Source of the DNA: Yuukianura sp. NJ FZ-2021 | Taxonomy: Eukaryota | Direction of reading: 5' to 3' | Length of the DNA: 64,000 nt | Assembly (NCBI GenBank): GCA_046563655.1 | Contig: CM102288.1 | Location: 930,001 to 994,000 of the forward strand | Shown here: positions 38,646-64,000 of the stretch, piece after piece | Position numbering within the stretch: position 1 is the first letter of the stretch | Layout: each line of letters starts with the position of its first letter | Made by a program: the position numbers and the translations under genes | The notes under the pieces: generated by a model | Told to the model about the DNA's origin: nothing | Databases searched by the model: none | What the model saw: the letters and a program-made list of their open reading frames with translations, nothing else

Positions 38646-38986
38646 TTCAACTGATGAGTAAGAAATTTGCAGACAAGGCTAATGTCAATTGGATTTTGAA
38701 CAGAGGAGGTTTGAAAAGTTGGGAATTTGCCGACTGGTTGATTTGTAAACTATGACAGCTGAAGATTGAATCTGAAAAGTAAAACCTTGAACAGGAGCTA
38801 CTGAGGATTTTTAGTTCGATTCATCTTCTAACTCCACTTTGAAGACCTTGGCTATTCATGTCACACTTCATCTGTGTTTCAACAACCTAAACTGTAAATA
38901 GTAATCTATGAGGGGAGAATCGACTCATAAATGCAACTACCGCACAACAACAACATCAGAACACCACAACCTAATGTTGTAGTTTT

Positions 38987-39290
38987 CACACAAGAACAAC
39001 TCTTACACACAAGAACAACTCCCACGCACAAGAACAACTTTTACACACAAGAACAACTTTTGCACATAAGAACTACTTTTACATACAAGAACTACTTTTG
39101 CACACAAGAACAACTTTTGCACACAAGAACTACTTTTACATACAAGAACTACTTTTGCACACAAGAACAACTCTCACGCACAAGAACAACTTTTGCACAC
39201 AAGAACAACTTCTACACACAAGAACAACTTTTGCACACAAGAACAACTTTTGCACACAAGAACATTTACGCACAAGAACTACTTTTACAC
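38987..39290 (+). repeat. 19-bp minisatellite in left TIR (~16 copies)
   Basis: Unit CACACAAGAACAACTTTTG with minor variants. Confidence 0.92.
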
Positions 39291-40013
39291 ACGTCTACTA
39301 CTTTTTCACGCCTACTGCTTTCTGCTTTCGCACACAAGAACAACTCCCTCCGCCTACTATTTTTTTGTCCAACTCATCAAGTGGTATCAGATAGGTTAGG
39401 TCAGAAAACGATAGCCCAGATTTTGAAAACCTTTTGCACATACAAGCCACCCACATCGATGCAGTTTCTCAGAAAATTATAGCTTTGTCAGTGGTCCAGG
39501 TCAAAAGTTATGGTTGTTTCATGTCCAAGAATGTTTGATGTACCAAGGCAAAGTTGGTTTTTCCTTGAATTTAGTCAGCAAATTATAGACTTTTCTTTCT
39601 CATTTAATCGCTCAATTCCTCAGTTCGATTCGTCCAGAGAATAATAATTGCTTTTATTAGCAGCTTTTTCGTTTATAAAAACTGGGACCTGAAGAGCATT
39701 AATGCAAGAATTGAAGTACGTTCGTATTTTAGGAAAAAACATAAACAAAATATTCTACAATTGCCCAAATCCGCTAACACCGTAGTCTAAAATCAATCAA
39801 TCAATCAATCAATTTTTATTTGATTTGGCCTTTTGCCCTATCAATTACAAATCCTGCAGCTCATTTAAGTTAAAAGTAATAAAACAAATTAGCAAAGTCA
39901 AGTAGGTAGAAAAATTAAAATAAGTAAGAAGATGTAAGTAATACGAAGTCAAAAGTAGAATTAGGGGGACTTAATGATGTGTGCAATGGGAGAGAATTAG
40001 AGGTGTCCCGCGG

Positions 40014-43000
40014 TCATCGGTCCAGGGCAGGCTCGAACATTGAGAGTACTTTTTGATTTAAAATTTGGAGGTTCTTGATAAGTGTGATGTCGTTGTAATG
40101 TGAACTGACCCAGACAATTGGGCATTGGGACGGTGGGATGTGCAAATGAATCCGGTGTGTGTTAGTCTGTGGGCAGGTCCATAGAGCGTGGTAGTAAGAC
40201 AGTTGGTCTCCACAGAAACTGCAGAACTTTTCTTTGAACTGGCCGAGATCAAGCCATTTTCGGTTGTGGTAGACCTGGTTCATGTTCAGCCGGATCTGCA
40301 TGACTGTTCTGGTGAGGTAGGCTGGGAACCGTTTTGAAAGTAATTCCTTCGCCGGGAAATCGTTCTCAAGGGTAGAGTAGTGTGGTATGGAACTGGACAG
40401 CAATGCACGACTCTTGTCTGATTCACGGTAGAAGTTCGCAAGGTTCTTGATTATTGTTTTTGTTTTTGCTCTGATGTCATGTAAGTTTCCCCGGTCATAG
40501 GCTCCCTCTTCCCCAATTTGAGTAAGGGCAGCTCTAAGCTGTAGGCACCAACTGTATTTTTGATCAGGGTAGAGTAATGTAACTTTCCTTAGTTGTAGGT
40601 ATGCGTTTTTTGTGAGGTCAGAGCAAGATTTTGTGTGGAATTTTGTGAACAGTTGCCAGGCTCTTTTGATTATTTCGAACTCTAAGGGAGGAGACCCTGT
40701 CTCTAGCCGTATGAAGTACCGGGGAGTAGTGAACGGTAAGTGGAAAACTCGTTTGTAATAGTTTTGTTGAACCGTTTCTACGGTGTCAGAATGTAGTAAA
40801 CCCCAGGTTTCACAATTGTATAAGGTTGTGGATGTTACAAGTGAGTTGAGTAGCATCTTAACCGTCCACAGGTCAATGTAGGCAGATTTCTTGAGTAAAC
40901 CCAAGACTGCTCCTTGTGCTGAAGTTCCTTTATCAACTGCGTTCCTTGCAGCTTTGTGGAATGTGCCGTTAGATTGGAAGATCACACCAAGGTACTTGTA
41001 TTCTGCCACTGTTTCTATCCGTGTTCCATTCCAAAAGAACAGGTCGTCTTTTCGTAATCTTCCCGATCGACGGAAAGGTATTACCTTTGTTTTTGTAAGG
41101 TTGACCTGGAGACCTCTGGCTTTGAAGAAGTTCGAGGCGATTTTGATTTTCTCCTGGAGCAGTTCCTTGGACTGTGCTGTGATTACAAGGTCGTCAGCGT
41201 ATAGCAGAACATGAATAATACGGGAGCCCAGAGTGTAGCCTTTGAGTAGTGAATTGGTGAATCTGCTTACTAGGTCTTCAATGAACAAATTGAAGAGGGT
41301 GGGACTGGCGGATTCACCTTGGAGCACCCCTTTCATTATTTTAATTGGATCGGTGAGTCCTTCGCTGGTGTTAACTTGGGTAGTGGCGTTGTCATAAAGG
41401 GACTTGAATATTTTTAGAAATTTGGTTGAGACACCCATGTTTCCCAGGACCTCCCAGAGTAGAGAGTGGTTTGGAGTGTCAAAAGCCTGTGACAAGTCAA
41501 CGAATGCGACATACAACTCTTTTTGTTTCAACATCTGGCATTGAACCATAGTCGTTAATGTAAATATGTGGTCAGTGCAGGATCTAGATTTTCTGAAGCC
41601 AGCTTGGAAGTCTGAAATTTTGTGGTTGACATTTATCCAGTTGTTGAGTCTTGTGTTCATCACCTTAGTAAACAGCTTTAGAATCGTATTCATCAGCGAA
41701 ATTGGACGGTAATTTTGCGGCTGGTCTTTTGGCCCTTTTTTGTATAATGGGAGTATTCGAGTATTACACCAGTGAGTTGGCAGTATCCCGTTCTGGAGGA
41801 TATTTTGGAAGAGTGTAACCAGGAATATTAGAATGTTCGGGGTGGCCGCTTTCCATAACTCATTCGGGATTCTGTCGGGGCCTGTTGCTTTGCGTGTTTT
41901 CAACGACTTTGTTGCCATCCTTATCTCAATTGCTGTTACGTCACGATCTAGTATTTCATTTTCTACGAATGGTGTATGTAGGATTTGATGATTCGGGACG
42001 TCACGGGCTTTGAAGAGGTCCTGGAAGTGTTGAAACCACGTATCCTTCGGGATTTTGTCTTGTGAAGTTGTTTGGGCTGTAAAGTATTTTACCGCCTTCC
42101 AGAAGTTTGCCGGGTCTTTGGATGAGTGAAGATGCGAGACAAAATTCGACAGGAACAATGATTTCTTGTTAATTAGTTGCTGTTTGTACAGTTTCTGGGC
42201 TTCTATATAGCGTTGTGCACATGCCGCTCTATTCTCTTCGTCGCACCTTCTTAACTTGCGGAGGGCATTGTTTTTCCTCCATTTCAAGGAGTTCAGCTCC
42301 GCGTCGAACCACTTAGGCTTTGGTCTTATTGGTTTTGGCTTTGACTTCGTGTGGTTGCCTGTTACCTTCGCTGTTTCTACGACTGTTTGTTGTAGTTGAA
42401 GGCTAGCTTCGTTTGCATCCTTGATGTCATAATTCAGAGAGGTCTCAAGAAGTTTATAGAAGTCGTATTTTGCCATTTTTTCTGTAGGAATTATTATTTT
42501 CTCTTGGGTCAGGCCACCGTGATTCTGCGGTTGGTTCACCGTTTGTTGAAGGGAGACGAGCAAAGGGAAGTGGTCGGAGTGATGCCAGTCTAGTATTTTC
42601 AAGTCCCTAACGTTGCCTTGCCAGTTCTGGGATGTGAGCACAAGATCTACCACACTGCACCCTGCGTTTGCTGGGTTTACCATGGTTATTTCTCCTTGTT
42701 CATCTCCTGTTATTGCTCCATTACAAATTGTAAGGTTACACTCGGCCGCAACTGATAGCAGGTTTCTCCCATTTCCATTTATGAACTTGTCCTTGCTTTT
42801 TCTTTTGTACAATGGGGTTGTGTTTCTTTCCCCGGTTCTTGAATTTAAGTCTCCCATTAGCAGTATTGGTTTGTTTGTGAATTTTAGAGTTTCAAGTGTA
42901 TCAGTCACTAGTTTTTGGTTGGATTTATCCGGAGGAATGTAGGCGAATAGCAGTAGAAATTGTGATTGATGATTGCGGACGGCTAGTAGTATTGAGTGGT

Positions 43001-43262
43001 CCGTCGTTTCTAGTAAAGTGATTTCTGAGCCTATTGAGCTGTGCCAGCCAAAAATGAAACCCCCATAAGGACGTCCCCTGTCTGGTTTTTTGGCTAGGAT
43101 TTGGTGAACTGTATATTCTTGCTGTAGTCTGAGGTTTTTATAATTTTCCCATTGCATTGATTCTGATAGGCAGAAAAGAGAAGGTTGGAGGCTCAAGAAT
43201 TCGTTCCAGAAAGTCGGTCCTAGGTTATTTACACTTTTTGCATTCAAATAGAAGATTGTCAT
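40014..43262 (-). CDS. LINE ORF2: AP-endonuclease, reverse transcriptase and C-terminal CCHC-like motif (1082 aa)
   Basis: EN motifs LSE, GDLNSR, VDLV and SDH. RT motifs GPDRI, YRPISL, QAGFR, DLSQAFD, GVLQG, YADD and YLG. C-terminal CSFC...H...C. Confidence 0.96.
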   Translation of the reverse strand: MTIFYLNAKSVNNLGPTFWNEFLSLQPSLFCLSESMQWENYKNLRLQQEYTVHQILAKKPDRGRPYGGFIFGWHSSIGSEITLLETTDHSILLAVRNHQSQFLLLFAYIPPDKSNQKLVTDTLETLKFTNKPILLMGDLNSRTGERNTTPLYKRKSKDKFINGNGRNLLSVAAECNLTICNGAITGDEQGEITMVNPANAGCSVVDLVLTSQNWQGNVRDLKILDWHHSDHFPLLVSLQQTVNQPQNHGGLTQEKIIIPTEKMAKYDFYKLLETSLNYDIKDANEASLQLQQTVVETAKVTGNHTKSKPKPIRPKPKWFDAELNSLKWRKNNALRKLRRCDEENRAACAQRYIEAQKLYKQQLINKKSLFLSNFVSHLHSSKDPANFWKAVKYFTAQTTSQDKIPKDTWFQHFQDLFKARDVPNHQILHTPFVENEILDRDVTAIEIRMATKSLKTRKATGPDRIPNELWKAATPNILIFLVTLFQNILQNGILPTHWCNTRILPLYKKGPKDQPQNYRPISLMNTILKLFTKVMNTRLNNWINVNHKISDFQAGFRKSRSCTDHIFTLTTMVQCQMLKQKELYVAFVDLSQAFDTPNHSLLWEVLGNMGVSTKFLKIFKSLYDNATTQVNTSEGLTDPIKIMKGVLQGESASPTLFNLFIEDLVSRFTNSLLKGYTLGSRIIHVLLYADDLVITAQSKELLQEKIKIASNFFKARGLQVNLTKTKVIPFRRSGRLRKDDLFFWNGTRIETVAEYKYLGVIFQSNGTFHKAARNAVDKGTSAQGAVLGLLKKSAYIDLWTVKMLLNSLVTSTTLYNCETWGLLHSDTVETVQQNYYKRVFHLPFTTPRYFIRLETGSPPLEFEIIKRAWQLFTKFHTKSCSDLTKNAYLQLRKVTLLYPDQKYSWCLQLRAALTQIGEEGAYDRGNLHDIRAKTKTIIKNLANFYRESDKSRALLSSSIPHYSTLENDFPAKELLSKRFPAYLTRTVMQIRLNMNQVYHNRKWLDLGQFKEKFCSFCGDQLSYYHALWTCPQTNTHRIHLHIPPSQCPIVWVSSHYNDITLIKNLQILNQKVLSMFEPALDR

Positions 43263-43337
43263 GTTGGTTAAAAATGTTTCGCTGCAGGATCCTGTACTTG
43301 TTTTGTTTAGTAGGCTATTGATAGGGCGGCCGAGTCC

Positions 43338-44096
43338 TCATTTTGGGGCAGGGAATGAGCTTCGAGTGGCCGAAGCAAAGGTTCTGGGAATAGTCGAATT
43401 TGATGTTCCTGGTGCTAGAGTTCGGGATTCATAAGCCCGTTGTCTTAATTCGCGATTTTTTTGTCTTTCAAGTCTGGTTTCCGCAGTAAGGTCTTCGGTA
43501 ATGGAGTAAATGTCTTTGTTTTGTATGAACGTCTTCCGAAGCTGTAGAGCTCGCATGCGTTGGGCAAATGTAGAAATTCGAACTTTAATTGGGCGGGGCT
43601 TATCAGACGACGGGTTCAATTTTCCAATTCTGAATGCATCTTCTACGTTGACCGGAACGTTGTAGTGGTTAAAAAAGTCGTTGGTGATGTTCATCGTGTT
43701 TTCATTAGTAGTTTCCGAAAGTCCGTGGATAAGAATGTTGTTGCGTCTTAATTCGTCAGTGAGACGGGAGTTCATTTTTTTCAGTTGGTCGATTTCTTGT
43801 TGTTGCTGTTCTGTTTTCGTTTGTAGTTCTTCGATTTGTTCTTGGTATTTTTCCAATTTGAGTTCGATGGAGTCGCATCTCGTGTCAATTTTTGCGTCGA
43901 TCTTTTCGGATCTGTCAATCAGTTTTGTAATTGCCGCCATTAGATCTTCATTCGAGACATTTGATCTTTTTGAGTATGGTTCGTTTCCGTTGTTAGGATC
44001 CGATTCGGCAGGTCGTTTGCTTCCTTTGTTTTGTGGGAGGAAAGGTAGGGTGGTTTGCGACATGTTCTGTGACACGGGTGAGCGTGAGATTGGCAT
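43338..44096 (-). CDS. LINE ORF1: coiled coil plus RRM-like (L1 ORF1p-like) nucleic-acid chaperone (252 aa)
   Basis: Heptad coiled coil followed by RRNNILIHGL...RIGK...KPRPIKV...ITEDLT. Lies directly upstream of ORF2. Confidence 0.88.
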   Translation of the reverse strand: MPISRSPVSQNMSQTTLPFLPQNKGSKRPAESDPNNGNEPYSKRSNVSNEDLMAAITKLIDRSEKIDAKIDTRCDSIELKLEKYQEQIEELQTKTEQQQQEIDQLKKMNSRLTDELRRNNILIHGLSETTNENTMNITNDFFNHYNVPVNVEDAFRIGKLNPSSDKPRPIKVRISTFAQRMRALQLRKTFIQNKDIYSITEDLTAETRLERQKNRELRQRAYESRTLAPGTSNSTIPRTFASATRSSFPAPK

Positions 44097-44110
44097 CAGC
44101 TTTTAATTTT

Positions 44111-44574
44111 AGGTTACTCTACTGAGTTACCTCTTAGGTTACCCTACTGGGTTACCTTAGGTTACTCTACTGAGTTACCTTGGACCGTAGGTTACCCTAC
44201 TGGGTTACCTTAGGTTACTCTACTGAGTTACCTTAAACCGTAGGTTACCCTACTGGGTTACCTTAGGTTACTCTACTGAGTTACCTTAGGTTACTCTACT
44301 GAGTTACCTTAAGCCGTAGGTTACCCTACTGGGTTACCTTAGGTTACTCTACTGAGTTACCTTGGGCTGTAGGTTACCCTACTGGGTTACCTTAGGTTAC
44401 TCTACTGAGTTACCTTGGGCCGTAGGTTACCCTACTGGGTTACCTTAGGTTACCCTACTGAGTTACCTTGGGCCGTAGGTTACCCTACTGGGTTACCTTA
44501 GGTTACTCTACTGAGTTACCTTGGGCCGTAGGTTACCCTACTGAGTTACCTTAGGTTACTCTACTGAGTTACCT
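44111..44574 (-). repeat. Array of 18 palindromic 22-bp units in the LINE 5' UTR
   Basis: Plus-strand units AGGTTACTCTACTGAGTTACCT (9), AGGTTACCCTACTGGGTTACCT (7) and hybrid AGGTTACCCTACTGAGTTACCT (2), separated mostly by 1-nt or 8-nt linkers. Confidence 0.95.
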
Positions 44575-46384
44575 TTGACCTTTGAAAAGGTAAACGGCGT
44601 AATCGGTCGAGGAGAAATTGGCGTAGGGATAACGTAATTGATTGAACTTTAATGACTTGGAGTTAAAGATTGGATGCTGTAATTACTGGATGTGTTCTGA
44701 ATAGACGTTGGAGGTTGCTACTAGACGATTACTGTTCGGTTTTAAGTGTAGACGAGCAGTGTGTTGTGGTAGTACTAATTCCTCTTGTTGTGCCTGTGCA
44801 ATGACGAGTCTTGTGCTGATCGACTGTAGCGACTTGATGTGCACTGGAACTGGCAGGGTGTCGTCTCGTGTCACTGGACAATTAAAAGGACTGGAACAGG
44901 ACGGGTGTCGTAAGCCTTTGGTAGATTGTAATGCTCTTGGCCTATGTCAAAGCGTGAGTCCTCTCCTATGTCTCGTTCAGTGCTTGATTAGTTATTGATG
45001 CCTTTGCCGTTTAGTAGTTGATTGTTATTGATTACTGGTAGCTGGTTGTCTGTTAGCCACTGATGATTCGTTTGTCACGAGACACAATAGTATTGCGTTA
45101 CCTTCATTAATGTTAGTACTTGTCCACGAGAACGAATGGTCAGCTGATCGAAAAGTACTAAAAAATCCCACAATTAGCTCCCTGGTACTGCCAAAAGTAG
45201 TATCAGCGTGTGCGGGAAGAGTTGCTCTGTTGAATTCCAGTTGATTCCAGTGACCAAGGTTAGTTAATTGGTGAATAAAAATGATTGATTAGGGAGCCTG
45301 TCTTTTTCGTTCACCAGAAACACCCCTCCTTTTACACCGTAGTCTAAAACAAGCTTCATTTTCGAGTTAAGTTGCTCTGCCGTAAAGAATTTTGGAATGA
45401 CAATCTCACTGAAGCAAGCATGTACCTCGATGTCAGTCGCCTCTTCGCTGATATTCAACTTCAGAACGTCATCTGGAAACCCTCCCCAACCGGTCCATGC
45501 TTTTAACAAATCTCCTAACTTGTCGTCTAAAAACAATCAAAAGCAAATTATAATTTCATAAGTGGTTTAAATGTTACCAGTTAATGGAGTTACTGTTCAG
45601 ATCAAATAAGAAACCGCAAAAACACCTGCACATCGTCATGTTCTTTTTCCCAAAAAGTAGTTTAAGAGTTAATTAATGTCATCTTTCCTTTAAAGCAGAA
45701 ATCGTTCTTACCCAAAGTTAGGATTGTGTCACTTAATCCGAAAGCGGAAAGCGAGGCGAGTCGGATTGAGTTCGGAGCATTTGCTTCGGCACGATCCCCT
45801 AAGGAACAAAACGGTTTCGTCCAGACCCTATCCTGTGCTACTCTACTGCTACGATTTGTTGAACGACCAACGGTTCTTCCTCTCCCAGCTGGTGAAGCGT
45901 ATGGCAGGAAATTTCGCCTTGCCTCCTAGTAAATCCTAGCCGGCGTACTGGGCAACATGACAGGGCGAGAAACAGATAAATTCGAGGGACCTGGGCTATC
46001 AGTTGTCATATTGTCTCTCGCTAATGCTGCCTGAGACGCTGCAAATAACAATCAGTATTAGAACGTAACCATTATAAAACATGAAACTATAACTTAGATT
46101 TCCGGAATAAGTTACCATTATTGTTATTTGAAGATGCAATGGCGTTCCTTATTTCGTCTAAAAGGTTTAAGACACGTTGTCGTGTGACATCCATGTTTAT
46201 ACGAAGGAACTAAGTTACTGGAAACAGGAACAATTTGCGAAGTGCAAATAATAAATATTCAACATCTGAGCACATAACAACCAACAAATTGATATTCCCT
46301 CGCCTGGACCACATGATGAGTTGGACAAAAAAATAGTAGGCGGAGGGAGTTGTTCTTGTGTGTGAAAGCAGAAAGTAGTAGACG

Positions 46385-46620
46385 TGTGCAAAAGTTGTTC
46401 TTGTGTGTAAAAGTTGTTCTTGTGTGCAAAAGTTGTTCTTGTGCGTGAGAGTTGTTCTTGTGTGCAAAAGTTGTTCTTGTGTGCAAAAGTTGTTCTTGTG
46501 TGCAAAAGTTGTTCTTGTGTGCAAAAGTTGTTCTTGTGTGCAAAAGTTGTTCTTGTGTGTAAAAGTTGTTCTTGTGTGCAAAAGTAGTTCTTGTGTGTAA
46601 AAGTTGTTCTTGTGTGAAAA
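46385..46620 (-). repeat. 19-bp minisatellite in right TIR (~12 copies)
   Basis: Reverse complement of the left-TIR unit (AAAAGTTGTTCTTGTGTGC). Confidence 0.92.
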
Positions 46621-47106
46621 CTCAAACATTAGGTTGTGTGTTTTGATGTTGCTGTTGTGCGCGGTGGTTACATTTATGAGTCGATTCTCCCCTCATAGTA
46701 ATCTACTTTGAAGCACTCAATTCAAAAGCAAACAAGAACAAGCTTTTTAGTAAACTACAATGTAGTACACACCTTTTCATGTGGTCAATTCATGCTCAAA
46801 AGTGACACTTAAGGATGTGGTCAACAAAAAAAAAGTTTTACTAAAAACTAGTTTTAAATTATAATTGTATCAACAAAACCCAATTTTTACTTGTGTATTT
46901 GAAACGGATGCGAATTGGAAGTGCAGAAACGTACAATTTAATTCATTTCCATAAATTATTGAAAATTAATTTTATGCAATCCATTTTCAAGTTAGCATAA
47001 AAGTTGGTACAAAACTAAGAGCTTGAAATTCCGCAAAACCCGAACGTTTTCTATAAATTAAATTTGAAGACGAGTAGAGAAACAGCATTTGAAATCAAAA
47101 TTTGCG

Positions 47107-48802: not shown

Positions 48803-51800
48803 TTAGAAATTTTGAATTACGGGCGTGGTGATCCGGGAACGAATTGGTAGAGCAGCATCGTGCCACATCCGATTCCAAGGACGACCAGATACACTACCGT
48901 TACCAATGCAAGGTCGAATACAACAGAAGTTCCTGGCTTCGTTTTGGTATGGCGCGTCATTTTTCGGATTTAGATTCCTTAATACTGAATTTCCCAAACC
49001 TACACTGCAACTTACAATGAAATTTTTGGGTTATAAAATGAGTCCAGGACAGGAGCCACAATTTGGTCATTACTATTTCAAGTGTTTTAATGATAATTTA
49101 AACTTTATCATTTTTCAACGTTATCTTTGTAATAATCTGAGTGCCAATGCAATTAGAACAGATAATTACCAGATTAAAAAGAGCTTAACAAAATGGAAAA
49201 CTTTGCACAAATTGCATGTCAAGGCTATTTCACAATCATGTCAAAAAGGTAGGCAACAAAGCGGTGAAAGTTGTGATAGAATTTCTCAAAATGAAATATT
49301 TGGAATGTTTTAAAAAAAATTAAATTGTGTTAAAAATTTTGCTAAAAAACATGATTTCCCGAGTCAAGAAATCAAATGAGGGAACTTTCTTGAGAATTTT
49401 TTAAATGCATTTAATATATTCTAAGAGCCAATTTTCACACTAATTAACTAAAAATTTGATTTTTTGTAATTTTTTGTGTTAGTAATCCGAAATTCCAGAA
49501 CTTCTTTTTTCCATCCAGATCCCGATTACTTGCATGGGCAAGAGCATTGGCCTCCTGGAAGATAAATTCTATGTCGAAAGTAGTCCTGGGTTGAAGCAGG
49601 ACTTTCTCCACTGAAATTCAAAGTCACTTGTTCAGCCGATGGTTGTCCATTGATGATAACGACATTCGGTTTCTTTAGTTGTTGCTCAGTTGTAGTTGTA
49701 GTAATCTTAGTGAAGATTTGCTTGGTTCCCTGTTGTCCATTAAAGTCAATCACATTTGGATTCTTCGGTTCCTCCTCAACGAAGATCATGTTCGAATCGT
49801 TTGGCTCCTCCTTAGAACTCACCGTTATGTCTCCCAGATTATGCGGCTCTCCATTGATGTAGACGATGTGTTCTTGTTCTGTGGAAGTCGTCGGCACGTC
49901 TTCTTGAATTTGAGGTTGACCATTGATGTAAATGATATGATGGTGTTGGCTTGGTTCTTCGTGGGTAGTCACCGTGGTCACGCGTTCTTCAATTTGAGGC
50001 TTGCCATTAATAAAGACAATCTGGGGCTTCTTTGGTTCCTCTTCCGTGGTAACAGTCGTGATGGTTTCTTCAGTTTGGGGCTGCCCATTGATGTAGCTGA
50101 TGTGGGGCTTGTTTGGTTCTTCTTCAGATGTAACAGTCGTGATGCCTTCTAGAGTCTGAGGTCGGCCGATGATAATGTGTTGGATTGGTTTTTCCTCTTC
50201 AGAAGTAACAGTCGTGATGGTTTCTTCAGTTTGAGGCTGCCCATTGATGTAGATAATGTGGGGCTTGTTTGGTTCCTCTTCAGAAGTAACAGTCGTGATG
50301 CCTTCTAGAGTCTGAGGTCGGCCGATGATAATGTGTTGGATTGGTTTTTCCTCTTCAGAAGTAACAGTCGTGATGGTTTCTTCAGTTTGAGGCTGCCCAT
50401 TGATGTAGATGATGTGGGGCTTGTTTGGTTCCTCTTCAGAAGTAACAGTCGTGATGCCTTCTAGAGTCTGAGGTCGGCCGATGATAATGTGTTGGATTGG
50501 TTTTTCCTCTTCAGAAGTAACAGTCGTGATGGTTTCTTCAGTTTGAGGCTGCCCATTGATGTAGATAATGTGGGGCTTGTTTGGTTCCTCTTCAGAAGTA
50601 ACAGTCGTGATGCCTTCTAGAGTCTGAGGTCGGCCGATGATAATGTGTTGGATTGGTTTTTCCTCTTCAGAAGTAACAGTCGTGATGGTTTCTTCAGTTT
50701 GAGGCTGCCCATTGATGTAGATGATGTGGGGCTTGTTTGGTTCCTCTTCAGAAGTAACAGTCGTGATGCCTTCTAGAGTCTGAGGTCGGCCGATGATAAT
50801 GTGTTGGATTGGTTTTTCCTCTTCATAAGTAACAGTCGTGATGGTTTCTTCAGTTTGAGGCTGCCCATTGATGTAGATAATGTGGGGCTTGTTTGGTTCC
50901 TCTTCAGAAGTAACAGTCGTGATGCCTTCTAGCGTCTGAGGTCGGCCGATGATAATTTGTTGGATTGGTTTTTCCTCTTCAGAAGTAACAGTCGTGATGG
51001 TTTTTTCAGTTTGAGGCTGCCCATTGATGTAGATAATGTGGGGCTTGTTTGGTTCCTCTTCAGAAGTAACAGTCGTGATGCCTTCTAGAGTCTGAGGTCG
51101 GCCGATGATAATGTGTTGGATTGGTTTTTCCTCTTCAGAAGTAACAGTCGTGATGGTTTCTTCAGTTTGAGGCTGCCCATTGATGTAGATAATGTGGGGC
51201 TTGTTTGGTTCCTCTTCAGAAGTAACAGTCGTGATGCCTTCTAGAGTCTGAGGTCGGCCGATGATAATGTGTTGGATTGGTTTTTCCTCTTCAGAAGTAA
51301 CAGTCGTGATGGTTTCTTCAGTTTGAGGCTGCCCATTGATGTAGATGATGTGGGGCTTGTTTGGTTCCTCTTCAGAAGTAACAGTCGTGATGCCTTCTAG
51401 AGTCTGAGGTCGGCCGATGATAATGTGTTGGATTGGTTTTTCCTCTTCAGAAGTAACAGTCGTGATGGTTTCTTCAGTTTGAGGCTGCCCATTGATGTAG
51501 ATGATGTGGGGCTTGTTTGGTTCCTCTTCAGAAGTAACAGTCGTGATGCCTTCTAGAGTCTGAGGTCGGCCGATGATAATGTGTTGGATTGGTTTTTCCT
51601 CTTCAGAAGTAACAGTCGTGATGGTTTCTTCAGTTTGAGGCTGCCCATTGATGTAGATGATGTGGGGCTTGTTTGGTTCCTCTTCAGAAGTAACAGTCGT
51701 GATGCCTTCTAGAGTCTGAGGTCGGCCGATGATAATGTGTTGGATTGGTTTTTCCTCTTCAGAAGTAACAGTCGTGATGGTTTCTTCAGTTTGAGGCTGC

Positions 51801-54800
51801 CCATTGATGTAGATGATGTGGGGCTTGTTTGGTTCCTCTTCAGAAGTAACAGTCGTGATGCCTTCTAGAGTCTGAGGTCGGCCGATGATAATGTGTTGGA
51901 TTGGTTTTTCCTCTTCAGAAGTAACAGTCGTGATGGTTTCTTCAGTTTGAGGCTGCCCATTGATGTAGATAATGTGGGGCTTGTTTGGTTCCTCTTCAGA
52001 AGTAACAGTCGTGATGCCTTCTAGAGTCTGAGGTCGGCCGATGATAATGTGTTGGATTGGTTTTTCCTCTTCAGAAGTAACAGTCGTGATGGTTTCTTCA
52101 GTTTGAGGCTGCCCATTGATGTAGATAATGTGGGGCTTGTTTGGTTCCTCTTCAGAAGTAACAGTCGTGATGCCTTCTAGAGTCTGAGGTCGGCCGATGA
52201 TAATGTGTTGGATTGGTTTTTCCTCTTCAGAAGTAACAGTCGTGATGGTTTCTTCAGTTTGAGGCTGCCCATTGATGTAGATAATGTGGGGCTTGTTTGG
52301 TTCCTCTTCAGAAGTAACAGTCGTGATGCCTTCTAGAGTCTGAGGTCGGCCGATGATAATGTGTTGGATTGGTTTTTCCTCTTCAGAAGTAACAGTCGTG
52401 ATGGTTTCTTCAGTTTGAGGCTGCCCATTGATGTAGATAATGTGGGGCTTGTTTGGTTCCTCTTCAGAAGTAACAGTCGTGATGCCTTCTAGAGTCTGAG
52501 GTCGGCCGATGATAATGTGTTGGATTGGTTTTTCCTCTTCAGAAGTAACAGTCGTGATGGTTTCTTCAGTTTGAGGCTGCCCATTGATGTAGATAATGTG
52601 GGGCTTGTTTGGTTCCTCTTCAGAAGTAACAGTCGTGATGCCTTCTAGAGTCTGAGGTCGGCCGATGATAATGTGTTGGATTGGTTTTTCCTCTTCAGAA
52701 GTAACAGTCGTGATGGTTTCTTCAGTTTGAGGCTGCCCATTGATGTAGATGATGTGGGGCTTGTTTGGTTCCTCTTCAGAAGTAACAGTCGTGATGCCTT
52801 CTAGAGTCTGAGGTCGGCCGATGATAATGTGTTGGATTGGTTTTTCCTCTTCAGAAGTAACAGTCGTGATGGTTTCTTCAGTTTGAGGCTGCCCATTGAT
52901 GTAGATGATGTGGGGCTTGTTTGGTTCCTCTTCAGAAGTAACAGTCGTGATGCCTTCTAGAGTCTGAGGTCGGCCGATGATAATGTGTTGGATTGGTTTT
53001 TCCTCTTCAGAAGTAACAGTCGTGATGGTTTCTTCAGTTTGAGGCTGCCCATTGATGTAGATGATGTGGGGCTTGTTTGGTTCCTCTTCAGAAGTAACAG
53101 TCGTGATGCCTTCTAGCGTCTGAGGTCGGCCGATGATAATGTGTTGGATTGGTTTTTCCTCTTCAGAAGTAACAGTCGTGATGGTTTCTTCAGTTTGAGG
53201 CTGCCCATTGATGTAGATAATGTGGGGCTTGTTTGGTTCCTCTTCAGAAGTAACAGTCGTGATGCCTTCTAGAGTCTGAGGTCGGCCGATGATAATGTGT
53301 TGGATTGGTTTTTCCTCTTCAGAAGTAACAGTCGTGATGGTTTCTTCAGTTTGAGGCTGCCCATTGATGTAGATAATGTGGGGCTTGTTTGGTTCCTCTT
53401 CAGAAGTAACAGTCGTGATGCCTTCTAGAGTCTGAGGTCGGCCGATGATAATGTGTTGGATTGGTTTTTCCTCTTCAGAAGTAACAGTCGTGATGGTTTC
53501 TTCAGTTTGAGGCTGCCCATTGATGTAGATAATGTGGGGCTTGTTTGGTTCCTCTTCAGAAGTAACAGTCGTGATGCCTTCTAGCGTCTGAGGTCGGCCG
53601 ATGATAATGTGTTGGATTGGTTTTTCCTCTTCAGAAGTAACAGTCGTGATGGTTTCTTCAGTTCGAGGCTGCCCATTGATGTAGATAATGTGGGGCTTGT
53701 TTGGTTCCTCTTCAGAAGTAACAGTCGTGATGCCTTCTAGCGTCTGAGGTCGGCCGATGATAATGTGTTGGATTGGTTTTTCCTCTTCAGAAGTAACAGT
53801 CGTGATGGTTTCTTCAGTTTGAGGCTGCCCATTGATGTAGATGATGTGGGGCTTGTTTGGTTCCTCTTCAGAAGTAACAGTCGTGATGCCTTCTAGAGTC
53901 TGAGGTCGGCCGATGATAATGTGTTGGATTGGTTTTTCCTCTTCAGAAGTAACAGTCGTGATGGTTTCTTCAGTTTGAGGCTGCCCATTGATGTAGATAA
54001 TGTGGGGCTTGTTTGGTTCCTCTTCAGAAGTAACAGTCGTGATGCCTTCTAGAGTCTGAGGTCGGCCGATGATAATGTGTTGGATTGGTTTTTCCTCTTC
54101 AGAAGTAACAGTCGTGATGGTTTCTTCAGTTTGAGGCTGCCCATTGATGTAGATAATGTGGGGCTTGTTTGGTTCCTCTTCAGAAGTAACAGTCGTGATG
54201 CCTTCTAGAGTCTGAGGTCGGCCGATGATAATGTGTTGGATTGGTTTTTCCTCTTCAGAAGTAACAGTCGTGATGGTTTCTTCAGTTTGAGGCTGCCCAT
54301 TGATGTAGATAATGTGGGGCTTGTTTGGTTCCTCTTCAGAAGTAACAGTCGTGATGCCTTCTAGAGTCTGAGGTCGGCCGATGATAATGTGTTGGATTGG
54401 TTTTTCCTCTTCAGAAGTAACAGTCGTGATGGTTTCTTCAGTTTGAGGCTGCCCATTGATGTAGATGATGTGGGGCTTGTTTGGTTCCTCTTCAGAAGTA
54501 ACAGTCGTGATGCCTTCTAGAGTCTGAGGTCGGCCGATGATAATGTGTTGGATTGGTTTTTCCTCTTCAGAAGTAACAGTCGTGATGGTTTCTTCAGTTT
54601 GAGGCTGCCCATTGATGTAGATGATGTGGGGCTTGTTTGGTTCCTCTTCAGAAGTAACAGTCGTGATGCCTTCTAGAGTCTGAGGTCGGCCGATGATAAT
54701 GTGTTGGATTGGTTTTTCCTCTTCAGAAGTAACAGTCGTGATGGTTTCTTCAGTTTGAGGCTGCCCATTGATGTAGATGATGTGGGGCTTGTTTGGTTCC

Positions 54801-57800
54801 TCTTCAGAAGTAACAGTCGTGATGCCTTCTAGAGTCTGAGGTCGGCCGATGATAATGTGTTGGATTGGTTTTTCCTCTTCAGAAGTAACAGTCGTGATGG
54901 TTTCTTCAGTTTGAGGCTGCCCATTGATGTAGATGATGTGGGGCTTGTTTGGTTCCTCTTCAGAAGTAACAGTCGTGATGCCTTCTAGCGTCTGAGGTCG
55001 GCCGATGATAATGTGTTGGATTGGTTTTTCCTCTTCAGAAGTAACAGTCGTGATGGTTTCTTCAGTTTGAGGCTGCCCATTGATGTAGATAATGTGGGGC
55101 TTGTTTGGTTCCTCTTCAGAAGTAACAGTCGTGATGCCTTCTAGAGTCTGAGGTCGGCCGATGATAATGTGTTGGATTGGTTTTTCCTCTTCAGAAGTAA
55201 CAGTCGTGATGGTTTCTTCAGTTTGAGGCTGCCCATTGATGTAGATAATGTGGGGCTTGTTTGGTTCCTCTTCAGAAGTAACAGTCGTGATGCCTTCTAG
55301 AGTCTGAGGTCGGCCGATGATAATGTGTTGGATTGGTTTTTCCTCTTCAGAAGTAACAGTCGTGATGGTTTCTTCAGTTTGAGGCTGCCCATTGATGTAG
55401 ATGATGTGGGGCTTGTTTGGTTCCTCTTCAGAAGTAACAGTCGTGATGCCTTCTAGAGTCTGAGGTCGGCCGATGATAATGTGTTGGATTGGTTTTTCCT
55501 CTTCAGAAGTAACAGTCGTGATGGTTTCTTCAGTTTGAGGCTGCCCATTGATGTAGATAATGTGGGGCTTGTTTGGTTCCTCTTCAGAAGTAACAGTCGT
55601 GATGCCTTCTAGCGTCTGAGGTCGGCCGATGATAATGTGTTGGATTGGTTTTTCCTCTTCAGAAGTAACAGTCGTGATGGTTTCTTCAGTTTGAGGCTGC
55701 CCATTGATGTAGATAATGTGGGGCTTGTTTGGTTCCTCTTCAGAAGTAACAGTCGTGATGCCTTCTAGCGTCTGAGGTCGGCCGATGATAATGTGTTGGA
55801 TTGGTTTTTCCTCTTCAGAAGTAACAGTCGTGATGGTTTCTTCAGTTTGAGGCTGCCCATTGATGTAGATAATGTGGGGCTTGTTTGGTTCCTCTTCAGA
55901 AGTAACAGTCGTGATGCCTTCTAGAGTCTGAGGTCGGCCGATGATAATGTGTTGGATTGGTTTTTCCTCTTCAGAAGTAACAGTCGTGATGGTTTCTTCA
56001 AGTTGAGGTTGTCCGTTTATAAGAACAATGTGAGGTCTGATCGACTCTTCTTTTGTTGTAATTTTCGTAATTCCTTCTACAATTTGAGGTTGCCCGTTTA
56101 TGTAGACAACGCGACGCTGGCTTGGCCTTTTCTCAGTAGTCACTGTTGTAATGCCTTGTTCAAATTGTGGTTCTCCGTTTATGTAGACAATGTGAGGCTT
56201 GTTAGGTCTTTCTTCAGTGGTGATTGTTGTCTGGCCTGGGTGGAAGTGAGGTTCCCCAGTGATGACGACATGGTGATGCTGGTTTGGGCTTTTGTCAGTG
56301 GTAACCACTGTTGTTCCTAGCTCATTTGTTGGTTGCTCATCATCTTCGCGATGTATTTTGTATTCGGGAGTGTGTGGCAGTGCATTTCCTTCATGGATAT
56401 GCGTCGTTACAACGTTGGCTTCATTGATTGATGTTGGGACATTGTTGACGTGAATTTGTGTGATTCCTGGCTGCTCAACCTTTTGATTTTTCAGAATAAC
56501 GTAGCTTGTTTCCTGTTTGTTGTGTTGCGGAATCGGAATGAAGCCGTGGTGGTGGGTTGTTTGATCTTCCTTAATTACTTTTGGAATATATTCGAAGTCG
56601 ATATGATCGCTTCCAGGTTGCTCAACAACGGATGCTTCATTCGTAACTGTGAAAGTGTCTTCTTGATTTTGAATGCCGAAAGTGGAACTTTGTTGATTTC
56701 CACCACGAATTATGAAATCGTTGAGATTGATGTGTCCACTTTCTGCGTCCGGAATATTCGTCCCGCCAGTGATGATTTTGTAAGATGGTTGTGAAATCGT
56801 TTGTTTGTGTACAGTTATACGGTGACTTCCGTGCATCTTGTCGGCCTTTGTTTCATCGTGCCCGCCAATCTTGATTTTGCTGCCACCAAAGGTGCCGTAG
56901 ACAATTTCGTGCGATTCTCCATGTTCATGGAAATTCTTGGGTCCGGTAATGATCGTCTTAACATGCGTTCCGACGAGGTGAGGACCTTCGTTCCCGCCTA
57001 CCTTGATTTCTTCGCTGCTACCAAAAGTACCGTGGCCAGTTTCGTGCGATACGTCATGTCCACCGAAGTTCTTGCGTTCGGTTATGATCGTCTCAGCATC
57101 ATTCCCGCCAATTTTAATTTCGCTGCTACCAACTGTACCGTGGTCAGTTTCGTGCGATCCGTCATGTACACGGAAAATCTTGGGTTTGGTAATGATCGTC
57201 TCAATATGCGTTTCGTGACTGTGATGACCTTCTTCTCCGCCAACCTTGATTTCGCTGCTACCAAAAGCACCAGCTTCATGCGATCCGTCACGTCCCTGGA
57301 AATTCTTGTGTCCGGAAATGATCTGAATATGCCTTCTGCTGCCCTGAAGACCGTCGTTTCCGCCAATTTTAATTTCGCTGCTACCAAAAGCACCGTGACC
57401 AGCTTCATGTGATCCGTCATGTCCATGGAAATTCTTGGGTGCGGTTCCGGTTATGATCGTCTTAACATGCGTTCCGCCGCGGTGAAGACCTTCGTTTCCG
57501 CCAATCTTGATTTCTTCGCTGCTACCACCAGTACCGTGGACCGTTTCGTGCGACCCACCATTCTCATGGTGGTTCTTGCGCCCGGTAATGATCGTTTCAA
57601 CATGCTTTCCGCCAATCTTGATTTCACCGCTACCGTGGCCAGTTTCGTGCGAGCCGTCATGTCCACGGCTACTCTTTTGTCCGGTAATGATCGTTTCAAA
57701 ATCGTTTCCGCCAATCTTGATTTCGTGGCTACCAAAACCACCGTGACCAGCTTCATGCGAGTCGTCATGTACACGGAAGTTCTTGGGTTTGGTAATGATC

Positions 57801-61630: not shown

Positions 61631-64000
61631 TTAAAGTCCAGTGTACTGTGCAAGTCCAGTATCATGCAGAAATTGCAGCTCAGCAGGCTCCGCCTGACGG
61701 AAAAACAGGTTTCGACCACGACTGTGTGACCTTTTGGGTTTTGTTGGTTGAGTGACCTCGCTAAAACAAGGTAAAAAAACTTTGAAATAGTTTTTCAAGT
61801 TTAGAAAAAAACATTTGAAATGTGGAATTTACCCAAAAAATGGAAGAATAGAGATGAGTAAATTCTTGTCTGGATGAGCTGCTAGAACGGAATTGTTTTG
61901 CAGTATATGATTTATCACTTTGCGCAAGTAGTCTTGCAATTTCCGGCGCCTTTCGTCCACAAATTTTGTATCCTTCAAAAAGTAAGTCAACTCACATGAA
62001 AATTTTCTAAAAACTAAATTTTCAAAATTCGATGTTTTGATATTTACCTTGTTTCCTATATGCTTTTTTGAAGGAAAGTAAAATGACCCAATAATGGGAT
62101 CTTTCTTTTTCAACTCTTTATGAAAAGTGTAAAATTGAGAATAACGTCGGTAAACGTTCCATTCTGTGTCCTTAATTCGTAGAAAGACCTGAGAACACAG
62201 AAAAACGTTACTAAAACGTATCCTACGAACTTGAAAACGTTTTCATCTTTACTTGGTAAACATGATGAAGGTCGTTTGTAGCTCCAGTGAGAAATGCCGA
62301 CGGAATCCAAGTGTTGATCAAAATGCGTTCGTTAGTGGTCAACTGCCTTTGAAATGGAAAGTGTCTCTGTCCAGATCCAACTTCTGAGAATGGAATGTCA
62401 ATGGACGTGTCTTCCCCGTCGTCGTCCATTTCTCCAAGTGGACCTCTTAAATCTTCCAATTCTGCACGCAGGCCTCTCAGAGCTTGATCTTTCCTTTGCA
62501 GCACAGCTTGAAGATATGCATTGAATTCCATCAATTCTCCATGCATCTCTGCTACTTGAATTAGTTTCCGTTCATACTCGGCTGCTTCCGTAGATTGCTC
62601 TGAAAAGAAAGAAAACGTTTGAAATACGAATGTTTCAAAAAATTTCAAGAAATGAAAATAAACGTTCTAAAAACGTTTACCATCAGCGGCAGAGTTTTCT
62701 AGAGCATCAACTTCGTCCTGTTCAATCGAAAGTGAAATTCTTCTGACACCTCCACTTGCTCTTTCTTTGAGTAACTGCACAGCTCCGATGTACTTTTTCA
62801 ATTGATGTCTAAGCAATTGATTCTCTTTTGTCAAAGTTTCAACCTTGGTTTCAAGCATTTTCGATTGGTCATTGTGCTGTCTCCGCTCATCTGCAAGTTG
62901 TGCTGTAAGTTTGGCCACAATTTCAACTTCATGATCCAATACTAACTTTAACTTTCGTATTCTCTCGTCTGTTTCTGATCCTTGACTTTGGTCTTCCGGA
63001 CTTTCTTTTGGCGCAATCTTAGCCTCGTTAGGAAAAATTATTCCAGTAGTGGATCCACTTGCGGTGCTGATTTTATCATAGTCGTTTGAAAATTCGTCGT
63101 CACCGTTCGTATTGTAACTTGGAACGGGAATTAGTCCTTGGTTTCTTTCAGGATCTCCACTTAGAGAGCTATTGACGTCTTCAGATGAGCCGACGGGTTT
63201 GAGACGATCACAAGGCAAAATTGTCGTCAAACTTACGTTTTCCATGTCCAGTCGATCCGAAGTGTCAGAGTAAATGGACAAGTTATCTGAAGACTTAAGT
63301 GATGTTGAGTAACTGTTAGTGGATTTTTCTAGGCCGGTACTGGCAATTTCTTGAGGCAAGGAAGTTATCACAGCTGGAACTGAAGCAGTAGTATTGACAG
63401 TATTTGAAGTTGAAGTAACCGATTCATGTGGTAAACTCTGTCGATGACTCCTATTGGGAAGGATTGAACCAGGGGCGTGTTTTTCTGTAGGCGATGAGTT
63501 TTCGGCTTCATCAAATGAAACATAATCCGTTGGAACTTTCTTCTTTTTCTTTCCTTTTTTGAACTTGATTCCTAAGTGGTCTGGAATTGAGTCTTTCGAT
63601 AACAACCCCCCTGATTGAGCTTCAACTACACCATGCGTCAATTCTGGAACAGAACTTGCTATGGGATCATCATCCTGAAACACAAAAATAAAACTAGATC
63701 ATTAGAAAAAATCTAAAACTTTATTATTGTATTAGTACCACAGATGCCATTGTTTCGGATTGAATCTTGTCCAGAACGGGATTATCGACTATAAGTGCAA
63801 AAAGTATTGATCCAAGACCGGCAGCAGTTTGGGGCAAAATGGAACTCAGTTCGACGTCCAGCAGAAATGAGGACTGTTCGTAGAAATGACTCAAAGTATC
63901 GAATGACAGTATAACGTGAATGTATCTTTCAAGGGAATGTTCGTTAAGAGCTGCCCGGAGCCAAGCTCGTCCTCGACCTACATCAGTTCGGACGTTGTGC
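61631..64000 (-). CDS. SNX29: Sorting nexin-29 (RUN + coiled coil + PX), 5' part outside the window
   Basis: RUN end TDVGRGRAWLRAALNEHSLERY, coiled coil YERKLIQVAEMHGELMEFN, PX domain WIPSAFL...HHVYQV...WNVYRRY...FPSKK..GNKD..FVDERR, and C-terminus QYTGL*. Confidence 0.92.

Follow-up and report, generated by a model that had tools for sequence, protein, structure and literature searches.

Tandem repeats in the leaders of LINEs have, to our knowledge, so far been explained only in rodent L1, as promoters that act at the DNA level. The monomers of mouse L1 are roughly 200 bp long and non-palindromic. The human LINE-1 leader is long and AUG-poor and is translated by cap-dependent scanning. LINE ORF1 proteins (ORF1p) are regarded as sequence-unspecific, and both the cis-preference of LINEs and the control of ORF1 output are still open questions. 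Microsatellite 3' tails are typical of CR1/L2-like elements. Outside the LINEs, MS2/PP7-type stem-loop arrays, which were engineered from phage operators, are used to recruit coat protein. According to two reports, the tandem monomers that make up mouse L1 5'UTRs act as promoters, and their duplication buffers against truncation (PMC9022269, PMC6454616); in the first of these, the monomers form the 5' terminus, with a tether between them and ORF1. Type II ORF1, with a coiled coil, an RRM and a CTD, is reported for the L1, CR1, L2 and R1 clades (PMC4120745). In the literature searched, titles and opening lines of abstracts do not mention a short array of hairpins in the leader of a LINE.

Such an array is present in the genome of Yuukianura sp. 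NJ FZ-2021, in the leader of a full-length LINE that lies on the minus strand of the window, that is, of the whole 64,000-nt stretch of DNA analysed. The coordinates of the element and its parts are collected in Table 1. Tandem repeats are already known from LINE leaders, and the array is a variant of them.

Table 1. Features of the LINE and its leader, in window coordinates, with element coordinates (+) counted from the LINE 5' end; the last line refers to separate prokaryotic contigs.
Feature	Position	Strand	Basis or remark
Full-length non-LTR retrotransposon (LINE), 5,541 bp	39793..45333	-	perfect 16-bp direct repeat at ends, two intact ORFs
Target-site duplication, 5' copy, TTTTAGACTACGGTGT	45334..45349	-	longest common substring of flanks, 16/16 identical
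Target-site duplication, 3' copy	39777..39792	-	same 16-bp flank comparison
Unique upstream leader, AUG-poor, unstructured	44575..45333	-	element +1..+759
Sole leader uORF, 10 codons	45075..45107	-	ORF scan; ATG at +227
Hairpin array	44111..44574	-	18 units x 22 nt, ~8.5 copies of 53-nt higher-order repeat; element +760..+1223
Spacer from last unit to ORF1 ATG, AAAATTAAAAGCTG, 14 nt	44097..44110	-	ATG at 44096
ORF1, 252 aa, L1-type ORF1p (coiled coil 49-116, RRM, CTD)	43338..44096	-	profile, model and structure matches
ORF2, 1082 aa, APE endonuclease + reverse transcriptase	40014..43262	-	Pfam, PDB
3' tail (TTGA)5	39793..39812	-	read directly
Actinomycetota unit-core matches	L001:1501-1520, L002:213-232, L003:1176-1195		single copies

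The element is an APE-type non-LTR retrotransposon (LINE), as indicated by the domains of ORF2, the target-site duplication (TSD) and the 3' tail. In ORF2, the Pfam families RVT_1 (E = 3.6e-38), Exo_endo_phos_2 (2.2e-09) and Exo_endo_phos (7.9e-05) were matched, and comparison with the PDB returned L1 ORF2p (2.7e-34) and R2 (1.8e-30), matches that do not separate L1 from the CR1/L2 clades. Matches in the protein atlas were confined to generic reverse transcriptase/endonuclease clusters. For ORF1, comparison with Pfam gave nothing past coiled-coil noise, and Transposase_22 was without a match at E <= 0.01. A profile built from 61 relatives matched human LINE-1 ORF1p in the PDB (2ykp, E = 3.9e-21) at profile positions 53-225, a span that includes the coiled coil, the RRM and the CTD. 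The AlphaFold model of ORF1p (pLDDT 85.5) consists of a helix at residues 49-116 followed by an RRM-like fold, and ranks 1-9 of a Foldseek search with this model were all chains of human L1 ORF1p trimers. ORF1p is on these grounds of type II (L1-type), with a coiled coil, a single RRM and a CTD. An initial annotation, made from the sequence alone, had already recognised a LINE, and this assignment stands.

The 3' tail is a microsatellite and not the poly(A) of the L1 clade proper. Together with the type II ORF1, it points to the CR1/L2 side: a type II ORF1 is common to CR1/L2-lineage LINEs and to this element, and the (TTGA)5 tail fits CR1/L2-like elements. The relatives found here are distant, with 39% identity for the closest public relative of ORF2 and 35-38% for the best of 673 matches to ORF1. 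Judged from its sequence, the LINE is young and intact, and it seems still competent. Searches with blastn and tblastn returned self hits only, with no further copies of the element within the 64-kb window.

The LINE is sense-oriented in the apparent last coding exon of a HECT-like gene, whose flanking parts lie at 45334-45536 (-) and 39700-39792 (-). Translation of the upstream flank gives ..VHACFSEIVIPKFF..LDYGV, and the reading resumes beyond the LINE with SGFGQL-stop; the final 6 codons of this gene would thus give way to the insertion. The Pfam HECT match on the flanking exon (E = 0.025) falls below the cut-off of that family. Two arrays of a 19-nt tandem repeat (38965-39385 and 46308-46638), inverted relative to each other and 85-95% complementary, bracket the LINE together with ~1.4 kb of host sequence. 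The resulting foldback-like arrangement may itself represent a mobile element, or else a gene fragment that was captured. Elsewhere in the window, positions 50036-56008 are occupied by a 156-nt tandem repeat (38.3 copies, 99% identity) in an ORF at 49526-56836 (-), where it encodes a 52-aa protein repeat within a 2436-aa open frame. The Pfam hits PBSX_XtrA and TS_C on this frame have no significant stretch and appear to be artefacts of the repeat. The segments 1110-35738 and 61832-63999 are gene-dense, animal-like DNA, in which exon-sized frames match Nol11_C, ATP_bind_1 (GPN-loop GTPase family), Med11, CGI-121, Macoilin, UDPGT, 6PF2K, PX and RUN. The best relatives of the conserved GPN-loop GTPase exon of the host show 45-66% identity and are spread across animals, fungi and plants.

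The leader before ORF1 is 1,237 nt long and contains a single ATG, at +227. For the 759 nt upstream of the array, 6.2 ATG are expected against the one observed, and one or none was obtained in only 7 of 2000 dinucleotide shuffles. The antisense counterpart, CAT, is not depleted in the same segment, with 13 occurrences against 15.2 expected. Sense-only AUG depletion of this kind is characteristic of a leader through which ribosomes scan. The upstream leader folds no better than its shuffles (z = +0.83, with 14 of 20 shuffles at least as stable), whereas the 521-nt stretch holding the array reaches z = -7.75 on the sense strand and -5.75 on the antisense strand. The array is the sole strongly structured segment of the leader, set amid AUG-depleted, unstructured sequence. 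A lone half-unit, AAGGTAAC, occurs directly after the only upstream ATG, at 45091-45107 (-), ~530 nt before the array.

The position of the array also bears on its history. Because 759 nt of the element separate it from the 5' TSD, the array was copied through RNA, and as these 759 nt precede it inside the TSD, the template RNA started no less than 759 nt before it. The array is consequently inherited as a transcribed portion of the leader RNA, located away from where that RNA began. It is probably also older than this insertion and moved along with the element, because its linkers vary while the TSD is identical at 16/16 positions and both ORFs are open.

Read on the minus strand from 44574 to 44111, the array contains exactly 18 matches to AGGTAACnCAGTAGnGTAACCT in a pattern search, and its units have the consensus AGGTAACYCAGTAGRGTAACCT. 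Twenty of the 22 unit columns are without variation. Positions 8/15 are T/A in nine units, C/G in seven and T/G in two (units 2 and 5, counted from the array 5' end), and only three distinct unit sequences occur. The invariant columns include TAA at 4-6, TAG at 12-14 and TAA at 17-19, which lie in three different frames, and no ATG occurs inside the array on the sense strand. Among the linkers, nine consist of one A and seven have 8 nt (ACGGCCCA or a variant of it); the remaining linker is AAG. At a higher level, the layout is a 53-nt repeat composed of a T/A unit, an A, a C/G unit and ACGGCCCA; Tandem Repeats Finder reported this period over 44264..44575, with 5.9 copies and 96% matches. At one place a T/A-T/A-C/G triplet marks slippage in the 23-nt register. 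When as many as 3 mismatches were allowed, the unit pattern matched 18 times across the 64 kb, every time within the array, and in 100 dinucleotide shuffles it gave 0 matches. The initial annotation had arrived at the same inventory: 18 units of 22 nt (seven C-G, nine U-A and two hybrids), arranged mostly as 1-nt-linked dimers with variable 8-nt linkers, each with stops in all three frames and no ATG, and ending 14 nt short of ORF1.

The seven linker differences are all transitions on the sense strand, six of them C/T and one G/A at a CpG, and the T-rich linker variants gather at the ORF1-proximal end of the array. This clustering could reflect growth of the array at one end or deamination of unpaired bases. 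A scan of prokaryotic contigs (bacteria and archaea) for the unit gave three single matches and no arrays. These share a 20-nt core at one conserved locus in related freshwater Actinomycetota MAG contigs; their number is approximately that estimated for chance, and they were rejected as unrelated.

Each unit folds into a stem of 4+4 bp with an A.A mismatch and an AGUA loop. As sense RNA, the calculated energies are -7.8 kcal/mol for the U-A unit, -9.9 kcal/mol for the C-G unit and -6.9 kcal/mol for the U.G hybrid; on the antisense strand they are -8.6/-10.7 kcal/mol, and -3.8 kcal/mol for the hybrid with its C/A mismatch. Both the hairpin-forming capacity of the units and the behaviour of the hybrids, a wobble on the sense strand and a mismatch on the antisense strand, are therefore as first described. 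For the whole 521-nt stretch, the minimum free energy (MFE) is -205.4 kcal/mol on the sense strand versus -213.6 kcal/mol on the antisense strand. Any arm can pair with any other, since GGTAACC is self-complementary around its centre. When the entire array is folded at equilibrium, the MFE structure contains the own hairpin of only 9 of the 18 units, and the mean own-pair probability is 0.60. A search of Rfam over 39500..45600 on both strands gave 0 matches at E <= 1, hence no HDV-like ribozyme or IRES family.

The initial annotation had presented the paired differences between units as compensatory base changes, with the caveat that one ancestral change might have spread with the dimer. The caveat was right, and shuffling lends no support to covariation across units: only 1 of 8 pairs varies, among three distinct sequences, and 322 of 500 shuffles were as good. 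Because the array is a 53-nt repeat (96% matches) with U-A and C-G halves, the compensatory change is a single event amplified with the dimer. The claim was overstated, and what remains of it is one compensated pair. The chance that the two differences between unit types are mutually compensatory is ~0.012, or 0.035 with transitions only, and the chance that both hybrids are U.G and not C/A is 0.25 (n = 2). Moreover, palindromy and the compensated pair are not independent evidence, as it was these features that drew attention to the site.

The independent evidence consists of the position of the array inside the element, the AUG-depleted, unstructured leader around it, and the contrast between units and linkers. 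Differences from the position-specific 53-mer consensus amount to 2 of 396 nt in the units and 7 of 56 nt in the seven full linkers (Fisher p = 9e-6). With shared variants counted as single events, the contrast gives p = 0.003, and for the loops alone (0 of 72 nt, against the same linkers) it gives p = 0.0025. Most of the duplication took place in the 53-nt register, in which a linker is copied along with its units, so that simple homogenisation is not a ready explanation of this contrast; hypermutable linkers might account for it. The invariant loop and the uncorrected A.A mismatch suggest sequence-specific recognition by a protein, which they would fit better than bare stability.

The array is tentatively read here as an RNA-level stem-loop platform that gates ORF1 translation or RNP assembly, a proposal that ranks first among the readings but is possible rather than probable. 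The sense RNA would present as many as 18 small, identical stem-loops in a row, each of 4+4 bp and -7 to -10 kcal/mol, with the conserved A.A mismatch and AGUA loop, and this row would end 14 nt before the ORF1 start. The multivalent stem-loops would be recognised by a protein, which may be an RNA-binding protein of the host or the trimeric ORF1p of the element itself. The platform would then gate the scanning ribosomes that reach the ORF1 AUG, or nucleate an RNP beside the site of ORF1p synthesis, and the repeat number would set the dose.

Several features suggest such a platform. The array lies within the RNA, in a leader of the scanned type, and structure is confined to it; units and loops appear constrained relative to linkers, and the two differences between unit types are exactly compensatory. 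Both hybrids retain a U.G pair as sense RNA but not as antisense, and ORF1p is predicted to be an RNA-binding, trimer-forming protein of the L1 type. Against the platform, all of this evidence comes from a single element copy with one covariation event, and just two hybrid units underlie the U.G argument. Folding of the antisense strand is no weaker, and a DNA palindrome equally explains the constraint and the compensation. At equilibrium, 9 of the 18 units form their own hairpin; no Rfam family matches; the linkers may be hypermutable and the units may have been homogenised by slippage. The L1-type ORF1p is, moreover, described in PMC4120745 as a single-strand binder, and therefore hairpins are not its obvious ligand. 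A more specific form of the proposal, in which the array of AGUA loops and A.A mismatches would be a sequence-specific cis signal for RNP nucleation or ORF1 metering, acting through the ORF1p trimer or a host loop-binding protein, is improbable. We know of no description of a packaging or translation-control signal of such a kind for LINEs.

The alternative that survives best, although it is somewhat unlikely, is that the array is a functionless minisatellite. A palindromic, hairpin-prone 53-mer would have multiplied in the master lineage, through slippage or unequal exchange, and would be merely tolerated. The 53-nt higher-order periodicity with its 96% identity suits this explanation, as does the T/A-T/A-C/G triplet with its slippage in the 23-nt register; there are just three distinct units, the shuffles lend no support to covariation, and the linker variants are graded along the array, as in arrays growing at one end. 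The compensated pair would have arisen once, possibly by template switching in a quasi-palindrome, and would then have been amplified with the dimer. Quasi-palindrome correction is a mutational mechanism, but templated correction would be expected to remove the A.A mismatch, which is left uncorrected in 18 of 18 units. Tolerated expansion also accounts poorly for linkers far more variable than units (p = 0.003 to 9e-6) despite their joint copying in the 53-nt register, for the invariant loops (p = 0.0025), and for the retention of the array in an intact, recently mobile copy.

Action at the level of DNA is unlikely. Each 22-bp palindrome would bind a dimeric factor, and the whole would form an internal promoter or enhancer array, for which the promoter monomers of mouse L1 offer a precedent by analogy; since the array adjoins ORF1, copies truncated at the 5' end would retain part of the units and could still be expressed. 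A double-stranded site would fit the palindromic symmetry, the conserved units among variable linkers and the equal folding of both strands, and the hybrid units would be harmless as two valid half-sites. The TCAGT in the loop of the U-A unit resembles what we take to be the arthropod initiator motif, a post hoc likeness. However, the central 4 bp, which are usually free in the sites of dimeric factors, are invariant in 18 of 18 units, and no transcription-factor motif was recognised. Furthermore, the array starts 759 nt inside the element, the RNA behind this copy began far upstream, and units of 22/53 nt with 9-bp arms are unlike mouse monomers of ~200 bp. The initial annotation had offered a palindromic DNA-binding promoter array as one option and had cited the tandem 5' monomers of mouse L1; repeats in the transcribed 5' leader are indeed present, but they are not at the 5' end of the element, which weakens the case for a promoter of the mouse L1 kind at the transcription start.

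Insulation of ORF1 from upstream translation, also suggested initially, is hardly credible: every one of the 18 units has stops in all three frames that would close any reading frame running in from upstream ahead of ORF1, and the element is sense-oriented inside a host coding exon, but the upstream 759 nt, with their single 10-codon uORF, already have stops in every frame (6, 10 and 17, the last ones at +649 to +683), so that 18 more triple stops add nothing, and the unit stops are a by-product of GGTAACC and the AGTAG loop. Ribosome shunting was set aside; the single uORF ends ~500 nt before the array, unlike in known shunt leaders. Two post hoc motif matches in the array were also set aside: AAG|GTAAC, presumably resembling 5' splice sites or U1 sites, and UAGGGU/UAGAGU, which we take to be hnRNP-A1-like sites.

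The significance of the locus depends on which reading applies. With a short, hairpin-forming array of invariant sequence that adjoins the ORF1 start, deep in a scanned, AUG-depleted leader of a mobile-looking element, it lends itself to the study of RNA-level control in a compact natural setting. Should the array be a tolerated minisatellite, it is an ordinary transposon UTR feature.

Among known systems, the 5'UTR monomers of mouse and rat LINE-1 share with this array the head-to-tail arrangement of repeats upstream of ORF1 and a variable repeat structure, and an L1-type ORF1p is found in both. In contrast to the mouse monomers, the repeats here do not form the 5' terminus but are preceded by 759 unique nt and followed by 14 nt; they are near-palindromes of 22/53 nt and not non-palindromic units of ~200 bp, and the tail is (TTGA)5 and not poly(A). 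The human LINE-1 leader resembles the 1,237-nt leader in its near absence of AUG and precedes an ORF1p of the same fold, but it is not known to carry a tandem hairpin array, whereas here structure sits in one repetitive block. The MS2/PP7 arrays have no sequence relationship to the LINE array, and a protein binding the latter is hypothetical; as a functional analogy only, they combine the same features, namely many identical short hairpins with a conserved loop, an unpaired A in the stem and regular spacing.
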